From contig NC_057752.1 in NCBI RefSeq assembly GCF_004010195.1, positions 5,919,991 to 5,983,990 on the forward strand: a DNA stretch of 64,000 nt, in the 5' to 3' direction. The position numbers were made by a program, and so were the translations under genes. This stretch comes from Chiloscyllium plagiosum. Taxonomy: Eukaryota. Positions 4,175 to 53,845 of the stretch are shown piece by piece; the stretch's first letter is position 1; every line of letters begins with the position of its first letter. Below the pieces are notes generated by a model that was not told the DNA's origin, did not search any database, and was given only the letters and a program-made list of their open reading frames with translations.

Positions 4175-4574
4175 CATCCTTCCTGGACTGGCTCTGCTGT
4201 TTATTCACCCACTGATTGCACAAGCTTAGTTTAAACAGGATCCCTGCCTAGGCCAAAATAAACTTATTTTTTAAAAGAAGTCAATTTCACCAAGCTTTCT
4301 TGAATTAACAAAAACGGTAAGTTTATTAATGACTAAACATGAGCAGAAGTAGTAATGCAATACAGGGAGAATTTTAATAAGAAGTGATAATGGGGGAATG
4401 ACCAGCCCACTCTCAGCAGAAAGCCATGCCTTGCAGATGTATCTGCATCACCTTCCAGGAATATAGAAAAAACAACAGTTTAAAACTGACTACAACTCTA
4501 GTCCGTGTATGTTATTGGCTGGACACACTAGTGTGTGGACTAGAATATTGTGAGGCTCCAGTTTTGAAAACAGC

Positions 4575-5115
4575 CATTTTAAGCACTCCTGCACTGCGAG
4601 TAAAACATCTTCAAAGAGGAAGAAGAACACCTATACAAGGTATTCGCAAAAAACGGATATCCTCGCAATTTCATCAACAGATGCCTAAGGGAAAGACAAC
4701 AGAACGAGGACATGCCGCAACCCAAAGGACTAGCCACACTACCATACATCAAGAACATCTCTGAAATGACAGCCAGACTACTGCGACCACTAGCACTTAT
4801 AACAGCACACAAACCAACAGCCACACTCAGACAACAAGGGCAAGCGAAACAAAGAACAGCCAGGGAATTCCTAGAAGCATGGCACTCATCCACAAACTCC
4901 ATCAACAAACACATCGACCTGGACCCAATATACCGGCCACTACAGCGGACAGCTGAAACTGACAACCGGAAGCGGCAGGGACAGGCCACTATAAATGCCG
5001 GAGAAAACACCACAGAAGCGCTTCACAGGAGGCTCCCAAGCACTGAGGATGTCACCTAGACGGGGACGAAACGTTTGCAACAAAAACTTCCAGCTCGGCG
5101 AACAGAACCACAGCA
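4575..5115 (+). mobile_element. Penelope-like element 3' fragment (family A), internally deleted
   Basis: Peptides LPYIKNISEMTARLL and AREFLEAWHSSTNSINKHIDLDPIY are typical of the PLE RT-thumb/GIY-YIG C-terminus; followed by a hammerhead motif. Confidence 0.85.
5040..5078 (+). ncRNA. Minimal type-I hammerhead ribozyme motif (PLE family A)
   Basis: gca-CTGAGGA-(stem II)-GAAAC-GTT-tgc: core boxes intact, stem I gca/tgc, palindromic stem III AACGTT. Confidence 0.7.
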
Positions 5116-5781
5116 TCTTCTCTCTCACTCTGAATGCTGGAATTCATTCACTATCAAAAGGAATCAGAATAACAGAATTTTAACCAACCTGCAATCCAAA
5201 ATCAACTGCACTACTGCCAGCTTCAACACAATCAGTACCATCCAATAACAGCTGCAACATCTTTGTTCATGTTGAACAGTTCACAATTCGATTTTTTTAA
5301 CTTTTATCTTTTTGGACTCAACACTTGTGTGCATGTGTGTTGAATTACCATTTCTTCTCATGTTTAATAATTAATAAACTCTTTATTTTAGTTAATTTAA
5401 GAATGTCTGGCTAAATTGGCTCTTTTTAAATCAGAAAGATATCCACAAGGTAAGGGATCCTGTTTAAATGATCTTTTTTGCAACCAATCAAGGGGAACAG
5501 GTGAATAACCAAAGATGAGTCACTGCGTCTCTCCTTACTTGGGAGTTTGAAAATTTGGGGTATCCCACGTGGAACCATAGCAAATTGGCGAACCTTGATC
5601 ACAGACTGGTCAGAACACTGAGATATTCATTGATCTGTAGGGAAGCCTATAACCTAATCTCAAAAACGGGTTCTTCAGCTCTCTTCCCCATGGGAAAATG
5701 AAACACGTGAACCTTGCATTCGGACAGAAATGCTAGTGAGTTATTTTTGATCTCAACTTCCTTTCATCTTAGAAGTCAAGT

Positions 5782-16617: not shown

Positions 16618-16796
16618 TGTTTTGGATGTAGGTTTGCTCGCTGAGCTGGAAGGTTCATTTTCAACTTCGTCCGGTGGCTCACTGAAGATATTACCTAATA
16701 GGGTGACGAAATGTCTGAAAATGAACCTTCCAGCTCAGCGAACAAACATACATCCAGAACCTCAACCTGAGCTACAAATCTTCTCCAAACTTGCTA
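16618..16796 (+). mobile_element. Penelope family-A mini-insertion with inverted 5' arm and hammerhead motif
   Basis: 16623-16663 is the reverse complement of about 16716-16756; ctgaaga...gacgaaatgtc core at 16682-16715; attacaaa flanks both sides. Confidence 0.75.
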
Positions 16797-22899: not shown

Positions 22900-23024
22900 G
22901 GTTGATATTTGTGGTTGATAGTAATGATAAAGAGCGTGTGTCTGAGGCACGTGAGGAACTGATGCAGGTGCTTGCAGAGGATGAGTTGCGCAATGCTGTT
23001 CTTCTTGTCTTTGCCAACAAACAG
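22900..23024 (+). CDS. ARF3: ARF3-like coding exon 3 (125 nt)
   Basis: (G)[41 protein letters not shown]; acceptor cctctag, donor gtaaat; lies inside ORF 22875..23069. Confidence 0.95.
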
Positions 23025-23754
23025 GTAAATGAACTGTTGGAGTCCAAGGTAGTTGCACTGGATGAATAGTAAAACAGCCAGTACAGAGTCTTTGTTTTGC
23101 ATCAAGCAGTTAATTGCTGGTTTGTGTGGATTGCCACCGATTTGATGTGCATCCCACTCTGAAATGAGCTTTGAATATTAGTGGCACAAATGCATTAATT
23201 TTCCATCCTGGCCTGATGTTTTGTTCCCGATACAGTGACTACTCATGAGTCAATGAGCCAGACTCTCTCCCTGTCCTCCCTCTTGAAAGGGATATGATCT
23301 TTTGGTTTTTCGTATGGATCTTTCTAACTTATGGCTGCACTGCAGAATAAGGCACTTGCAAGTGGCGCAGTTATCACCACTAAATGGCAATCTGCATATC
23401 AACTTGTTTGTGCTTATGTTATGATAAAGCCAACAAGCTATTTTTGGCCTTAACAAATACAGTATTGCAATTGCTCGATGTTGTGTTTTACTATCATTTG
23501 CCTAGTTTGGGAGAATTGCCTTTCAGTATTGATCCATTCTTTTTATTGGAGTTAGATTCTGCTTCCAACTCCTCTTTTCCAGGCAGTATGTCCTAGTTCA
23601 TAACTCTGAATACTTCTCCTTGTCCCACATGTGCTTGCCATTTTTTTTTCTTTTTTTGCTTGCTTCCTTGTTTGAATATTCAACCAGTTCATCAACCCTG
23701 CCCTTGCTCAACTGTCAACCTCTTCAAACAATTACCAGGAATAAACTACCCCCT

Positions 23755-23867
23755 TCAAAGTTTGTGCGAAGATTTGTAGCTCGGGTGCTCGTTGTTGTGG
23801 TTCTGTTCGCCGAGCTGGAAGTTTTTGTTGCAACAAAAACTTCCAGCTCGGCGAACAGAACCACAAC
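23755..23867 (-). mobile_element. Penelope family-A fold-back mini-insertion containing a perfect palindrome
   Basis: 12-bp TSD aaactaccccct (23743-23754 / 23868-23879); the arm matches 5078-5111. Confidence 0.9.
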
Positions 23868-24609
23868 AAACTACCCCCTCCCCAACCATCTCCTGTAGCC
23901 CTCCGATCTGTTGCAATGACTCCAATGTTTTACTCCGTCCCATTTGTTGACTGTGTTCTTTAAGCTTAAAAGGATTTTTATCTCTTCAGCTGTCTTGTGC
24001 CTCTTAAGATGTTCCTTTCTAAAACCATCACTTTTTTAAACCAAGTTTTTGGTTAGCTGCCTTAACTTGAAACCAAGTATCAAAATATTTTTGATTTCAT
24101 GTGAAGTACCTTGGCCTTTTTAACTACGTGAAGGCAGTAAATTAAAATAAAAGTTGATGGTACACTCTCCAGCCTGGATAAACTTAGCATGATGCCTACA
24201 GTTGGCTACATGCCTTCACCTAACTCGTGGGTTGCAGCAGAAGTTCCTTGCATTTCACTTTTTTATAAAATCAAGCCTTGTGTGCTCTTTAACCAGCCTT
24301 GTCAACTTGTTCTGTTAACTGCATGCATTTCTGTACCTACCTCCCCAGAATCTTATTTAGTATTGTACCCTATTTTAATCTTTTTCTATTGTCTTGCAAA
24401 ATTCATCACTTAATACTGCATCAAATGCCTTCTACTGGTCTGTCCCTTTTGCATTCTGCTGCTATCCCCACTGTTTACTATTGTGGCAAGGGATTGGTGG
24501 GGGGTGGTGCTTGTTTTTAATTATGTGGGCTTTGGGAGTAGGAACAGTTTCACAGGCTTCCTGTAAAGCACTGTAATCCTGAGGTATAAATGTTGCCCCT
24601 TCTTCCTAG

Positions 24610-24768
24610 GATCTGCCGAATGCAATGAGTACAGCTCAAATCTCAGACAAGCTGGGCCTGAATTCTCTGCGCAACCGGGTCTGGTATATTCAGGCCACGT
24701 GTGCCACCAGTGGTGATGGTCTCTTCAGCGGTCTGGACTGGTTAGCTGGTCAGTTGAAACACAAGTGA
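24610..24768 (+). CDS. ARF3: ARF3-like last coding exon (to TGA)
   Basis: [52 protein letters not shown]; completes the NKQD motif; acceptor ttcctag. Total CDS 537 nt = 178 aa + stop. WLA.QLK resembles ARF3 (WLANQLKNKK) more than ARF1 (WLSNQLRNQK). Confidence 0.94.
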
Positions 24769-39135: not shown

Positions 39136-39414
39136 AAGTTAGGGTTTTGATGGGTTTGGGAAGGTAGTTCCCGACGTAAAAGAATGAGAAACTTATCTTG
39201 GGAGTTGAATTTTAAAAAAAACTTTCTAACTAATGGCCTCCTCGTGGCTCATGATTGATGTATAATTGAGAAGACTTGAAGGAAATTTAGTTCCTGTACT
39301 TGGCAAAGAACTTGGTGAGGATGTGAGGAGACACATTAACGTGCTTTTCTTTTTTAAAATGTCTTTAGCATTGATCTTTGTCACTGACAATGACAGGGCA
39401 TGTGTATGAGATAC

Positions 39415-41715
39415 TTGTAGAACATTACAGCTCAGTACAGGCCCTTCAGCCCTTGATGTTGCACCAACCTATGAAAATAATCTGAAGCCCATCTAACCTA
39501 CACTATTCCATTCTGGTCCCAATGACCATTTAAAAGCCCTTAGTTAGCGAGTCTACTCTGAGCAGTAAGAGTGTGAAATACACTGCCTGCAACTGGAGTA
39601 AAGAAACTACCTCTGACATCTATGTCCCCTCATGCTAGCCATCGCCATCTGAGGAAAAAGACTCTCGCTGTCCAACCTATCTAACCCTCAGATTATCTTA
39701 GTCCCAATTAAGTCACCTCTCAACCTTCTGTCTCCCAAAAACAGCCTCAAGTCCCTCAGCCTTTCCTCATAAGACCTTCCCTCCATACCAAGCAACATCC
39801 TAGTAAATCTCGAAATCCTTGCCAAAGCTTCCACATCCTTACTATAATGCAGTGATCAGAACTGTATGCAATACTCCGTGTAGCTGCAGCAGAGTTTTCT
39901 ACAGCTGCAGCATGATCTCATGGTTCTGAAACTCGATCCTTCTACCAGTAAAAGTGAACACAGCGTATGCTTTCTTAACAACCCTATCAGCCTGGGTGGC
40001 AACTTTCAGGGATCGATGTACATGGACAGAGACCACTCTGCTCATCTACACTACCAAGAATAGCCCATACTCTGCATTCCTGTTACTCCTTCCAAAGTGA
40101 ACCACCTCACACTTTTCCCCACTAAACTCCAATTGGCACCTCAGCCAGTTGGCACCTCTGCAGCTTATCTATGTTCCTCTGTGACCTATAACATCCTTCG
40201 TCACTGTCCACAACTCTACAGATCTTAGTGTCATCTGCAAATTTACTAACCCCTCCTTCTATGCCCTCATCCAGGTCATTTTCTATAAATGACAAACAAC
40301 AGTGGACCCAAAACACATCCTTGCAGTACCCCATTAGTAACTGAACTCCAGATGAACATTTCCCATCAACTACCACCCTCTGTCTTTCAGCTAGCCGATT
40401 TCTGATCCAAACCGCTAAATCACCCTCAATCCCATGCCTCTGTATGAAAAGCACGTTAATGTGTCTCCTCACATCCTCACCAAGTTCTTTGCCAAGTACA
40501 GGAACTAAATTTCCTTCCAGTCTTCTCAATTATACATCAATCATGAGCCACGAGGAGGCCATTAGTTACTGTTAGAACCTTATCAAATGCCTTACTGAAA
40601 TCCATACACATCACATCAACCACTTTAACCCTCATCCACCTGTTTGGTCACCTCAAAGAACTCAAGGTTTGTGAGGCACAACCTACCCTTCACAAAACCA
40701 TGTTGACTATCCCTAATCAACTTATTCTTCTCTCGATTATAAATTCTATCTCTTATAACCTTTTCCAACACTTTACCTGCAACCGAAGTAAGGCTCACTG
40801 GCCTACAATTACCAGGGTTGTCTCTACTCCCCTTCTTGAACAAGGGACCGACATTTGCTAAGCTCTAGTCTTCTGGCATTATTCCTGTAGACCATGACAT
40901 CATACAGATCAAAGCCAAAGGCTCAGCAATCTCCTCCCTGGCTTCCCAGAGAATCCTAGGATAAATCCCATCCAGCCCTTATCTATTTTTACACTTTCCA
41001 GAATTGCTAACACCACCTCCTTATGCACCTTAATCCATCTAGTCCAGTAGCCTGTGTCACCGTATTCTCCTCAACCACATTGCCTTTTTCTAGTGTGTGA
41101 ATACTTACAAAAAGTATTCATTTAGTGTTTTCCCATATCTCCTTTGACTCCATGCACAACTTCCCACTACTATGCTTGATTGGCCCTAATCTTCGGGCCT
41201 GATGAAGGGTTCCTGATAAAGGGCTCCAGCCTGAAATCTCGATTTTCCTGCTCCTCGGATGCTGCCTAACCTGCTGTGCTTTTTCAGCAACACACTACTC
41301 TGGCCCTAATCTTACTCTAGTCATTCTTTTATTCCTGATATAGGGTTTTCCTTGATCCTACCTGCCAACGACTTCTCATGTCCCCTCCTGGCTCCTCTTG
41401 GCTCTCTCCTTTTGGTCTTCCCTAGCTAACTTGACTCTCAAGTGCCCTAACTGAGCCATCACACCTCATCCTAACATAAGCTGCCTTCCTCTTGACGAGA
41501 TTCAACTTCATTGTAAACCATGTCCCCTGTGCTCAACAACTTCTTCCCTGCCTGACAGCTACATACTTATCAAGGACCCGCAGTAGCTGTTCCTTAAATA
41601 AGCTCCACGTTTCAATTGTGCCCATCCCTTGCAGTTTCCTTTCCCCATCCTATGTATCCTAAATCTTGCCTAATTGCATCGTATTTGCCTTTTCCACCAG
41701 CTATAACTCTTGCCC
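39415..41715 (-). mobile_element. CR1 LINE (second subfamily) fragment, about 2.3 kb
   Basis: FKKGSRDNPGNCRPVSLTSV, SQHGFVKGR and KFADDTK motifs on the minus strand. Confidence 0.9.
41194..41300 (+). mobile_element. Penelope family-B mini-insertion inside CR1
   Basis: 13-bp TSD tggccctaatctt (41181-41193 / 41301-41313); duplicated cctgat(g/a)aaggg hammerhead 5' box. Confidence 0.85.
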
Positions 41716-50330: not shown

Positions 50331-51008
50331 AGGAGGTAAAAACAATGACTGCAGATGCTGGAAACCAGATTCTGGATTAGTGGTGCTGGAAGAGCACAGC
50401 AGTTCAGGCAGCATCCAAGCAGCTTCGAAATCGACGTTTCGGGCAAAAGCCCTTCATCAGGAATAAAGGCAGAGAGAATGAGGAAGCTTATTAAGTCCGC
50501 ATTGATGCCCTGGGGTTGAAGTGTTCCGAGGCGGAAGATGAGGCTTTCTTCCTCCAGGCGTCTGGTGGTGAGGGAGCGGCGGTGGAGGTGGCCCAGGACC
50601 TCCATGTCCTCGGCAGAGTGGGAGGTGGAGTTGAAATGTTGGGCCACGGGGCGGTTTGGTTGATTGGTGTGGGTGTCTCGGAGATGTTCCCTAAAGTGCT
50701 CTGCTAGGAGATGCCCAGTCTCCCCAATGTAGAGGAGACTGCATCGGGAGCAACGGATACAATAAATGATATTAGTGGATGTGCAGGTAAAACTTTGATG
50801 GATGTGGAAGGCTCCTTTAGGGCCTTGGATAGAGGTGAGGGAGGAGGTGTGGGTGCAGGTTTTACAGTTCCTGCGGTGGCAGGGGAAAGTGCCAGGATGG
50901 GAGGGTGGGTTGTAGGGGGGCATGGACCTGACCAGGTAGTCACGGAGGGAACGGTCTTTGCGAAAGGCGGAAAGGGGTGGGGAGGGAAATATATTACTGG
51001 TGGTGGGG
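50331..51008 (-). mobile_element. Penelope family-B fragment encoding a GIY-YIG endonuclease remnant
   Basis: ORF 50261-50923: CxxxxCxxC, NIIYCIRCSRCSLLYIGETG, HFNS, LIFRLGTLQPQGIN; 11-bp TSD tctctgattca (50320-50330 / 51009-51019). Confidence 0.92.
50429..50464 (-). ncRNA. Minimal hammerhead ribozyme motif (family B), intact core
   Basis: Minus strand attc-CTGATGA-agggc-tttt-gccc-GAAAC-GTC-gatt. Confidence 0.75.
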
Positions 51009-52194: not shown

Positions 52195-53845
52195 CTCACC
52201 AGTACCCTTCCACTGCCACTATCATTCGTTTGACTGAACTGGTCCTCACCCTCAACAATTTATCTTTCGAATCCTCCCACTTCCTCCAGATGAAAGGGGT
52301 AGCCATGGGCACCCACATGGGCCCCAGCTATGCCTGTCTCTTTGTCAGCTACGTAGAACAATCCATTTTCCACAGTTATACCTGCACCACTCCCCACCTC
52401 TTCCTCCACTCCATTGACGACTGCATCGGCACCACCTTGTGCTCCCACGAGGAGGTTGAGCAGTTCATCAATTTCACCAACACATTCCACCCTGACCTTA
52501 AATTTACCTGGACCATCTCTGACACCTCCCCCCCCCTCCGTCCTGGACCTCTCCATCTCCATCAACGACAACCGACTCAACAACGACATTTTTTACAAAC
52601 TCACCGACTCCCACAGCTACCTCAATTACAGGAGGCAGGGTGGGAGGAGGTGTAAAAGTGCTATCCCATATTCCAAATTCCTCCATCTCTGCCGTATCTG
52701 CTGCCAGGAGGACCAGTTCCACTACAGAACACACCAGATGGCCTCCTTTTTTAAAGACTGTAATTTCCCCTCTCACGTGGTTGAAGATGCCCTCCAACGC
52801 ATCTCTTCCATGTCCCGCACCTCTGCCCTCAAACCCCACCCCTCCAACCGCAACAAGGACAGAACCCTTCCCCCTCCCCCCCCGTCCTCACCTTCCACCC
52901 CACCAACCTCCGCATAAACCACATCATCCGCTGACATTTCTGCCACCTCCAAATGGACCCCACCACCAGGGGTATATTTCCCTCCCCACCCCATACGCTT
53001 TCTGCAACGACTGTGCCCTCCGTGATCTATCTGGTCAGGTCCACGTCCCCCAACAACCCACTCCCCTCCTAGCACTTTCCCCTGCCACTGCAGGAATTGC
53101 AAAACCTGCACCCACACCTCCCCCCTCACCTCCATCCAAGGCCCCAAAAGAGCCTTCCACAAGCATCAGAGTTTCACCTGCACATCTACAAATGTCATTC
53201 GTTGCATCCGTTGCTCCCGATGTGGTCTCCTTTACATTGGGGAGACTGGACACCTTCTCACAGAGCGCTTCAGGGAACATCTCCGTGACACCCGCACCAA
53301 TCAACCCCACTGCCCCGTGGCCAAGTATTTCAACTCCCCGTCCCACTCTGCTGAGAACATGCAGGTCCTGGGCCTCCTCCACCGTCACTCTCACACCACC
53401 CGACGCCTGGAGGACAAACGTCTCATCTTCCACCTCAGAACTCTTCAACCCCACGGCATCAATGTGGACTTCCCCAGTTTCCTTATTTCCCCTCTTTTTC
53501 CCTCCCCACCTTATCCCAATTCCAAACTTCCAGCTGAGCACCATCCTCATGACCTGTCCCACCTTTCAATCTTCCCATCTATCTGCTCCACCCTCCTCTC
53601 TGACCTATCTCCTTTACCCCTTCCTCCATCCACCCATTGCACTCCCAGCTATCATCTCCCCAGCCCCACCCCCACCCATTTATCTCTCCACCACCGAGGC
53701 TTCTAACCTCATTCCTGATGAAGGGATCCTGCCCGAAATGTCGATTTTCCTGCTGCTCAGATGCTGCCTGACCTGCTGTGCTTTTCCAGCACCTACTCTA
53801 ATCTTGACTCTCATCTCCAGCATCTGCAGTCCTCCCTTTCGCCCT
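52195..53845 (+). mobile_element. Penelope-like element, 1.65-kb frameshifted RT + GIY-YIG remnant with terminal hammerhead (53711-53746)
   Basis: QMKGVAMGTHMGPSYACLF, SIDD (degenerate YIDD), LDLSISI, YKLTDSHSYL, KSAIPYS, CIRCSRCGLLYIGETG; frameshifts and stops. Confidence 0.92.

Follow-up and report, generated by a model that had tools for sequence, protein, structure and literature searches.

Whether the minimal hammerhead ribozymes of Penelope-like elements (PLEs) cut in living cells, and whether the cut RNA is then used as a template for insertion, is a question raised by a palindrome within an ARF-family gene of Chiloscyllium plagiosum. The centre of the palindrome coincides with the cut predicted for a hammerhead motif in a PLE copy found in the same 64 kb stretch of DNA, the whole of which was analysed here and is referred to as the window. 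The initial annotation interpreted the palindrome as a footprint of ribozyme cleavage in vivo, left by a cDNA that had run off the end of a cleaved RNA and snapped back on its own TGCA end.

The palindrome is the core of a PLE insertion

The palindrome is located 767 nt inside an intron of 1585 nt (23025-24609) in a gene on the + strand. The coding exon upstream (22900..23024; Pfam Arf, E 4e-13) is followed by a GT at 23025, and the exon downstream (24610..24768; Pfam Arf, E 3e-10) is preceded by an AG ending at 24609. Since Pfam Arf is matched in both flanking exons and the stop codon is in the downstream exon, the palindrome lies in the final coding intron of an ARF-family gene, as had been annotated. 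Compared with the ending typical of class I ARFs, the C-terminal exon at 24610-24768 looks divergent.

The sequence at 23792-23869 is an exact palindrome of 78 bases with no spacer, having 39-nt arms and a centre between 23830 and 23831. The runner-up perfect palindrome in the 64-kb window has a 10-nt arm, and the longest palindrome arms in Markov simulations (n=20, 64 kb each) were 6-10 nt. The palindrome and the 12-bp target-site duplication (TSD) are both exactly as described in the initial annotation, although the insertion extends beyond the interval annotated. A one-sided tail at 23755-23791 lies outside 23792-23869, and the complete insertion is 113 bp (23755-23867), made up of the 37-nt tail, a long arm, and an inverted, tail-less short arm. 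The two copies of the TSD (23743-23754 and 23868-23879) are identical and surround this whole unit, with the first 2 nt of the right copy overlapping the end of the palindrome.

The long arm (23792..23833, - strand) consists of pLTR sequence that begins at the predicted cut (-1/+1) and reaches about +41, followed at the distal end of the arm by the PLE tail (23755..23791, - strand), of which the last 2-3 nt beside the TSD may be non-element. The short arm (23828..23869, + strand) has the same pLTR sequence and ends without a tail at +39 to +41, with 2 nt in common with the TSD. The pivot, which is common to both arms, is the self-complementary hexamer TTGCAA (23828..23833), and the four bases of its inner TGCA are those that open the predicted 3' cleavage product. 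The palindrome arm had been equated with the sequence downstream of the hammerhead motif. It does match that sequence, at 5075-5115, yet the match is at 40 of 41 bases and is not an identity. Because the arm is PLE-family sequence, as found in the copy at 4.6-5.1 kb, the 113-bp insertion can be identified as a PLE stump.

Published PLE units have been described, in passages of Craig et al. 2021 (PMC8557442) and Arkhipova et al. 2013 (PMC3846280), as having an 'inverted 5'-truncated copy... 30-40-bp tail at only one end'. In the ARF intron, an inverted 5'-truncated copy adjoins the 5' end, and the tail, at 37 nt, is present on one end only. Head-to-head arms, the one-sided tail, the surrounding TSD, and a palindrome at the inverted junction are features common to this insertion and the endonuclease-positive (EN+) PLE units of those passages, and the insertion layout itself is already known. 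Compared to the units described there, the insertion is minimal (113 bp), symmetric without a spacer, and centred on the predicted cut. The passages on the PLE unit in the two papers do not relate the junctions to the hammerhead cut.

Based on its sequence, the palindrome is the core of a 113-bp PLE stump of this known layout. The stump is dead on arrival, because it carries no ribozyme core, in agreement with the initial annotation, and no usable ORF. The arms and the TSD are 100% identical and the insertion is therefore young. Classification as a retrozyme was rejected, the insertion being a single unit without a core, where the definition in a passage of bioRxiv 10.64898/2026.07.22.740005 is of tandem repeats that each have an intact hammerhead. 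Classification as a MITE was rejected due to the retroelement tail and the asymmetry.

The computed RNA fold of the palindrome is a hairpin of -76.9 kcal/mol (z -11). The ARF pre-mRNA is predicted to fold into a 37-bp hairpin at this position. In a search of sequencing runs with the stretch, 20 of the 24 runs listed contain it or part of it. The best word share was 0.97, possibly from the source, with 0.93 in two samples of another study, and such shares are uninformative for the junction words. No RNA run was listed among those containing it.

The PLE family and its hammerhead motif

The reference copy of the family, family A, is at 4604..5115 on the + strand, with 4604 being a provisional 5' boundary. 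It consists of an internally deleted ORF end and a 3' pLTR, with a tail-less end at 5113-5115. The copy translates to a PLE ORF end that has no Pfam match of its own. The proteins most closely related to it come from bamboo and epaulette sharks, at ~90% identity, and contain RVT_1 (26 hits among 171 candidates). Relatives at ~50% identity contain RVT_1 and a weak GIY-YIG match (E 0.008, below the cut-off). The single ORF combining RT with GIY-YIG at the C terminus that is typical of EN+ PLEs is seen through these relatives and not as a full ORF in the window. Pieces 81-95% identical to this PLE ORF are contained in annotated isoforms of three shark genes, MAP3K7, NT5DC1, and one that is CDP-alcohol transferase-like, being either exonised element or annotation error.

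A minimal type-I hammerhead motif was found by descriptor scans at 5040..5078 (+ strand), with a 3-bp helix I, the core at 5043, helix II, a palindromic ACGT for helix III, and a GUU triplet. The predicted cut is after 5075, inside TTGCAA, where it had been placed by the initial annotation. An ATG at 5049, 27 nt before the predicted cut, opens a frame that continues through the pLTR to the end of the copy. EN+ PLEs have a pLTR with a hammerhead motif and the ORF start, and in family A these are the motif at 5040-5078 and this ATG.

The scans identified the core sequences CUGANGA, GAAA, and UH, helix II, and the palindromic 15.2-16.2. The core, an extra base after position 9, and a G10.1-C11.1 pair are shared with known minimal hammerheads, as are the palindromic 15.2-16.2 without a helix III loop and the short helix I. 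Unlike the known examples, the sequence here has a GUU triplet, with GUC in the sister subfamily, and the insertion itself has no core. Helix I is 3-4 bp, of differing sequences, in families A, B, and E, and only 0-2 bp in the family D and F copies. An Rfam search returned no hammerhead match at the gathering score or at E<=10, and the MFE fold of the hammerhead monomer differs from the active fold (z 0.5-0.7). Both results are expected, because this is a minimal motif of the dimer type covered in passages of PMC4209133, where low in vitro activity is reported for PLE minimal hammerheads.

Linked variants at 5075, 5083, 5087, and 5089 split the family into GUU-triplet and GUC forms. GUU is an accepted hammerhead triplet, which cleaves more slowly than GUC. 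The GUU form makes up ~99% of the contig depth in DNA run X6, where the dominant form therefore has the less canonical triplet. The GUC form makes up ~11% of the depth in X16 and is found in 83 of 181 RNA reads in run X21. The abundance of the family is high, with 11,443 contig pieces in X6 and 4,949 in X16, these being two organisms. The exact family pattern was found in 0 stretches of metagenome contigs, and a metagenome protein-alignment search gave 27 pattern matches with 0 confirmed.

A convincing TSD was not found for the copies at 4.6-5.1 kb or 35 kb. Judged by eye, the 4.6-5.1-kb PLE copy is flanked by imperfect inverted repeats at ~4200-4250 and 5450-5515, as though it lay within an older DNA-transposon-like element. 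Inverted repeats are also present at 39227-39349 and 40446-40568 (123 nt, 99%) and at 50477-50903 and 53061-53487 (427 nt, 85%). Two opposed hammerhead copies of family D, at 50.4 and 53.7 kb, lie just outside the 427-nt repeats, and together these may form one large inverted PLE unit.

Origin of the two arms

The 113-bp insertion was probably formed from two cDNAs, each primed from one nicked strand of the target, that were joined via their TGCA/TTGCAA ends on the predicted cut. In this process the element endonuclease would nick both strands, 12 bp apart. One of the DNA ends would prime reverse transcription at the distal start site, generating the tailed long arm, and the other would prime at a proximal site 37 nt inside, generating the tail-less short arm. 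Both cDNAs would terminate within -1..+3 of the cut, pair over 4-6 bp, and be filled in. This would be twin priming in PLEs, and nothing proposing it was found in a search of largely open-access literature.

The end of the short arm aligns with the tail-less copy at 5113-5115 and with the short arm at 16619 (3 out of 3 ends of this type in families A and B). A tail-less end in common with these two other copies fits with both target nicks having served as primers. Exceptions to the fixed short-arm end are the 44805 arm, which ends at +9, and the pair at 27 kb, which ends at +66/+67 on both sides. The tail at 23755-23791 matches tails at 16.75-16.79 kb and 35.70-35.73 kb, and agrees with the consensus of the 126 + 25 RNA reads that run past 5112/5115. 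The head-to-head pair at 16619-16792 belongs to family B and has an 8-bp duplication. Its short arm at 16.6 kb is a clean match down to +1 of its own cut, then weak to -11 with a small deletion. This arm was conservatively scored as -11, and is a possible second cut-site end.

The protein of the Anolis carolinensis PLE PAc (Poseidon) nicks and extends both strands, and reverse transcription starts at two sites that bracket the tail (PMC11167929, Frangieh et al. 2024). An ATG at the start of helix II is common to PAc and family A, for which two start sites bracketing the tail, and nicking and extension of both strands, would likewise apply. The distance from the ATG to the cut is 27 nt in family A and 26 in PAc (PMC11167929). 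Counted from the ATG, the tail-less end is at ~+67 and the tailed end at ~+104 here, with the PAc start region at 111-118 (PMC11167929). According to the same paper, no reads of PAc, the one reconstituted element, ended at the cut in RNA-seq, and cleavage was dispensable in vitro.

The mechanism put forward in the initial annotation is unlikely. In it, a single cDNA runs off the end of an RNA cleaved by the ribozyme, folds back on its own TGCA end, copies ~37 nt of itself, and is then joined to the target. When the possible joins are enumerated, the centre can be regenerated from two cDNAs that overlap by 0, 2, 4, or 6 nt (ends +3, +2, +1, and -1), whereas snap-back of one cDNA requires 1 bp around 0, 2, or 4 nt. 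For a cDNA ending at the cut this is a 1-bp stem enclosing 2 nt, which is what makes snap-back unlikely, and the best allowed hairpin gives a different centre and so another sequence. Snap-back would account for the coincidence of the centre with the predicted cut, and snap-back 5' junctions are a low-frequency class in R2 protein-mediated insertions, as described in a passage of PMC11331408. A polymerase switching template inside its active site might also not need to obey the limits on hairpin loops. However, snap-back alone leaves it unexplained that the copied arm stops at the common tail-less end, which by chance is estimated at ~5/76 positions. As an example, the insertion speaks more for priming from both ends than for snap-back.

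Had the arms arisen by self-priming on an antisense template, or from a hairpin intermediate resolved by the endonuclease, the coincidence with the cut would be incidental. Palindromes at inverted junctions in Adineta have been read as self-priming in a passage of PMC3846280, and the tail has been ascribed to endonuclease resolution in a passage of PMC8557442. Against this, a hairpin primer would not leave a centre with zero spacer, and in vitro both tail ends are start sites for reverse transcription on sense RNA, with both DNA strands extended (PMC11167929). Such an origin is improbable here.

A shade less probable again is a secondary origin from a longer head-to-head insertion with one or two hammerheads, its centre having been lost by microhomology deletion between TTGCAA copies. 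Longer ribozyme-containing pairs are the commoner form in the window. However, central symmetry is usually destroyed, not produced, when a palindrome suffers a deletion, and the insertion is young, with arms and TSD fully identical. Microhomology deletions have been reported in Penelope copies, in a passage of PMC3846280. An assembly or library artefact from read fold-back is scarcely credible, for although the word shares do not prove the junction words, fold-back would not create a 12-bp TSD, a one-sided tail, and a short-arm end typical of the family.

The centre of the palindrome and the predicted cut

With two joined cDNAs as the preferred origin, the arms terminate at one and the same base, which is within -1..+3 of the predicted cut. 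The chance that the cDNAs end there because their template had been cleaved by the hammerhead is appreciable, if short of even. No trimming would be needed, since an RNA starting with UGCA would supply the ends. A cleaved template is favoured by the arms both stopping at the cut and skipping a stronger adjacent palindrome. This 8-bp palindrome at 5069-5076 (-8.0 kcal/mol, against -6.2 and -4.2) is nearer than the pivot to the ends of any run-on cDNA, and was left unused. The somewhat likelier explanation is that the cDNAs end there through stalling, or through trimming of longer cDNAs to a 6-bp microhomology. The ends are fixed only to -1..+3, therefore joining at a 6-bp microhomology without cleavage would yield the same product.

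There are 27 PLE arms in the window, with offsets taken from local alignments, some of them across families, and the upstream values are bounds. Thirteen start at -45..-20, eight further upstream, three beyond +3, one at -11, and two at the cut. The two at the cut are both from the palindrome event. Head-to-head pairs, called by orientation and proximity, number eight, with a single family-A pair in the window and a single pair centred on the cut. Of the other seven, two are near-symmetric (-34/-32 and -20/-23), four lack symmetry, and in one the two ends fall outside the references. Symmetry would seem to be tied to a defined RNA end, because the near-symmetric pairs sit where most of the stumps begin.

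The 13 arms that start 20-45 nt upstream of the cut do so at the front edge of the hammerhead core. They are at 16.7, 27.1, 27.3, 33.5, 41.2, 42.1, 42.3, 44.7, 44.8, 50.4, 51.6, 55.3, and 57.8 kb. This clustering at -45..-20 suggests a defined RNA start or a stall.

Reads from RNA run X21 were placed on 4850-5160, with the prediction fixed beforehand. This polyA single-cell library is ill suited to 5'-OH ends; it is expression-weighted and ~45% is the GUC sister subfamily. A total of 411 reads were placed from 12.96 million. Depth across the cut is flat (193, 189, and 192), and it climbs from 159 to 204 between 5004 and 5036. Among these 411 family reads there is no site with many read starts, and no pile of starts at 5076. 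The six groups of loose ends listed, the smallest having 9 reads, include no group at 5075-5077. If the best-supported rows are also the largest, cut-site ends make up less than ~5% of X21 reads.

No strand-change joints, at any site, are among the read joints listed. The fifteen read joints listed were rejected as evidence of pivots, being forward skips over a divergent stretch. Nor do contig counts bear on pivots, since junctions that are identical are merged into a single contig. Rows of A>G changes were likewise rejected as RNA editing; these are family polymorphisms, since they are also present in DNA runs.

The pile-up of inversion points at the cut that the initial annotation anticipated is not apparent in the data available, which are of low power (1 of 8 pairs, 2 of 27 arms, and no step in the RNA reads). 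Descriptor scanning located ten hammerhead motifs in the window, at 5043, 7758, 11355, 11717, 16682, 42292, 42893, 50460, 53715, and 57828. In nine of the ten, the centre of a palindrome is no more than 3 nt from the cut, and the micro-palindrome and the cut site are therefore confounded. Family A has five palindromes of at least 4 nt in its last 100 nt, and palindromes near the cut include the 8-bp one at 5069-5076 and a 4-bp one at 5092-5095. In the GUC subfamily only the 4-bp TGCA is available at the pivot, and there are family-D copies whose cut product begins with AATT. When the helix-III palindrome is set aside, a palindrome of 4-6 bp has its centre either at the cut or 2 nt beyond it in 8 of the 10 motifs (4 of 5 families). 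The chance of such a near-cut palindrome is ~1 in 5 per family, and it may aid RNA pairing or end-joining.

Of the footprint of in vivo cleavage initially claimed, what stands is the coincidence of the pivot with the predicted cut; no pile-up is apparent in the data available, and microhomology joining would yield the same product. The palindrome is a single event, chosen for being a perfect palindrome. It is only a hint of in vivo cutting, because it is one event and there is no pile-up at the cut in the other copies checked. Cut-derived insertions are at most a small minority in the data examined.

Implications for PLE insertion

The 5' junctions of the R2 retrotransposon are set by cleavage by its HDV-like ribozyme, as described by Eickbush et al. 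2013 (PMC3774820). In common with R2 as described there, a cut site would be read here from genomic 5' junctions, and annealing of cDNA ends would complete the insertion. R2 differs in being another element with another ribozyme, and its correlation extends over many copies and is supported by in vitro cleavage, compared to the one event here. No paper linking the inverted junctions of PLEs to the hammerhead cut was found in the search of largely open-access literature.

A single event is too little to carry the claim of cleavage, and the insertion in the ARF intron is a clean example of a known layout. It may be tentatively proposed, with the doubt outweighing the expectation, that a minority of PLE insertions are copied from hammerhead-cleaved RNA. 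In these, both target ends would prime on the 3' product, and the cDNAs would run off its 5' end and seal via their self-complementary first bases. If this is true, spacer-less palindromes centred on TGCA, or on AATT in a sister family, would be countable genomic fossils of ribozyme cleavage in the germ line. If twin priming by a dimeric PLE protein is true, the same palindromes would be its direct fossils as well. Insertions with both arms stopping at the cut would then make the question of whether PLE hammerheads act in living cells testable from genomes, as R2 junctions did for the HDV-like ribozyme.
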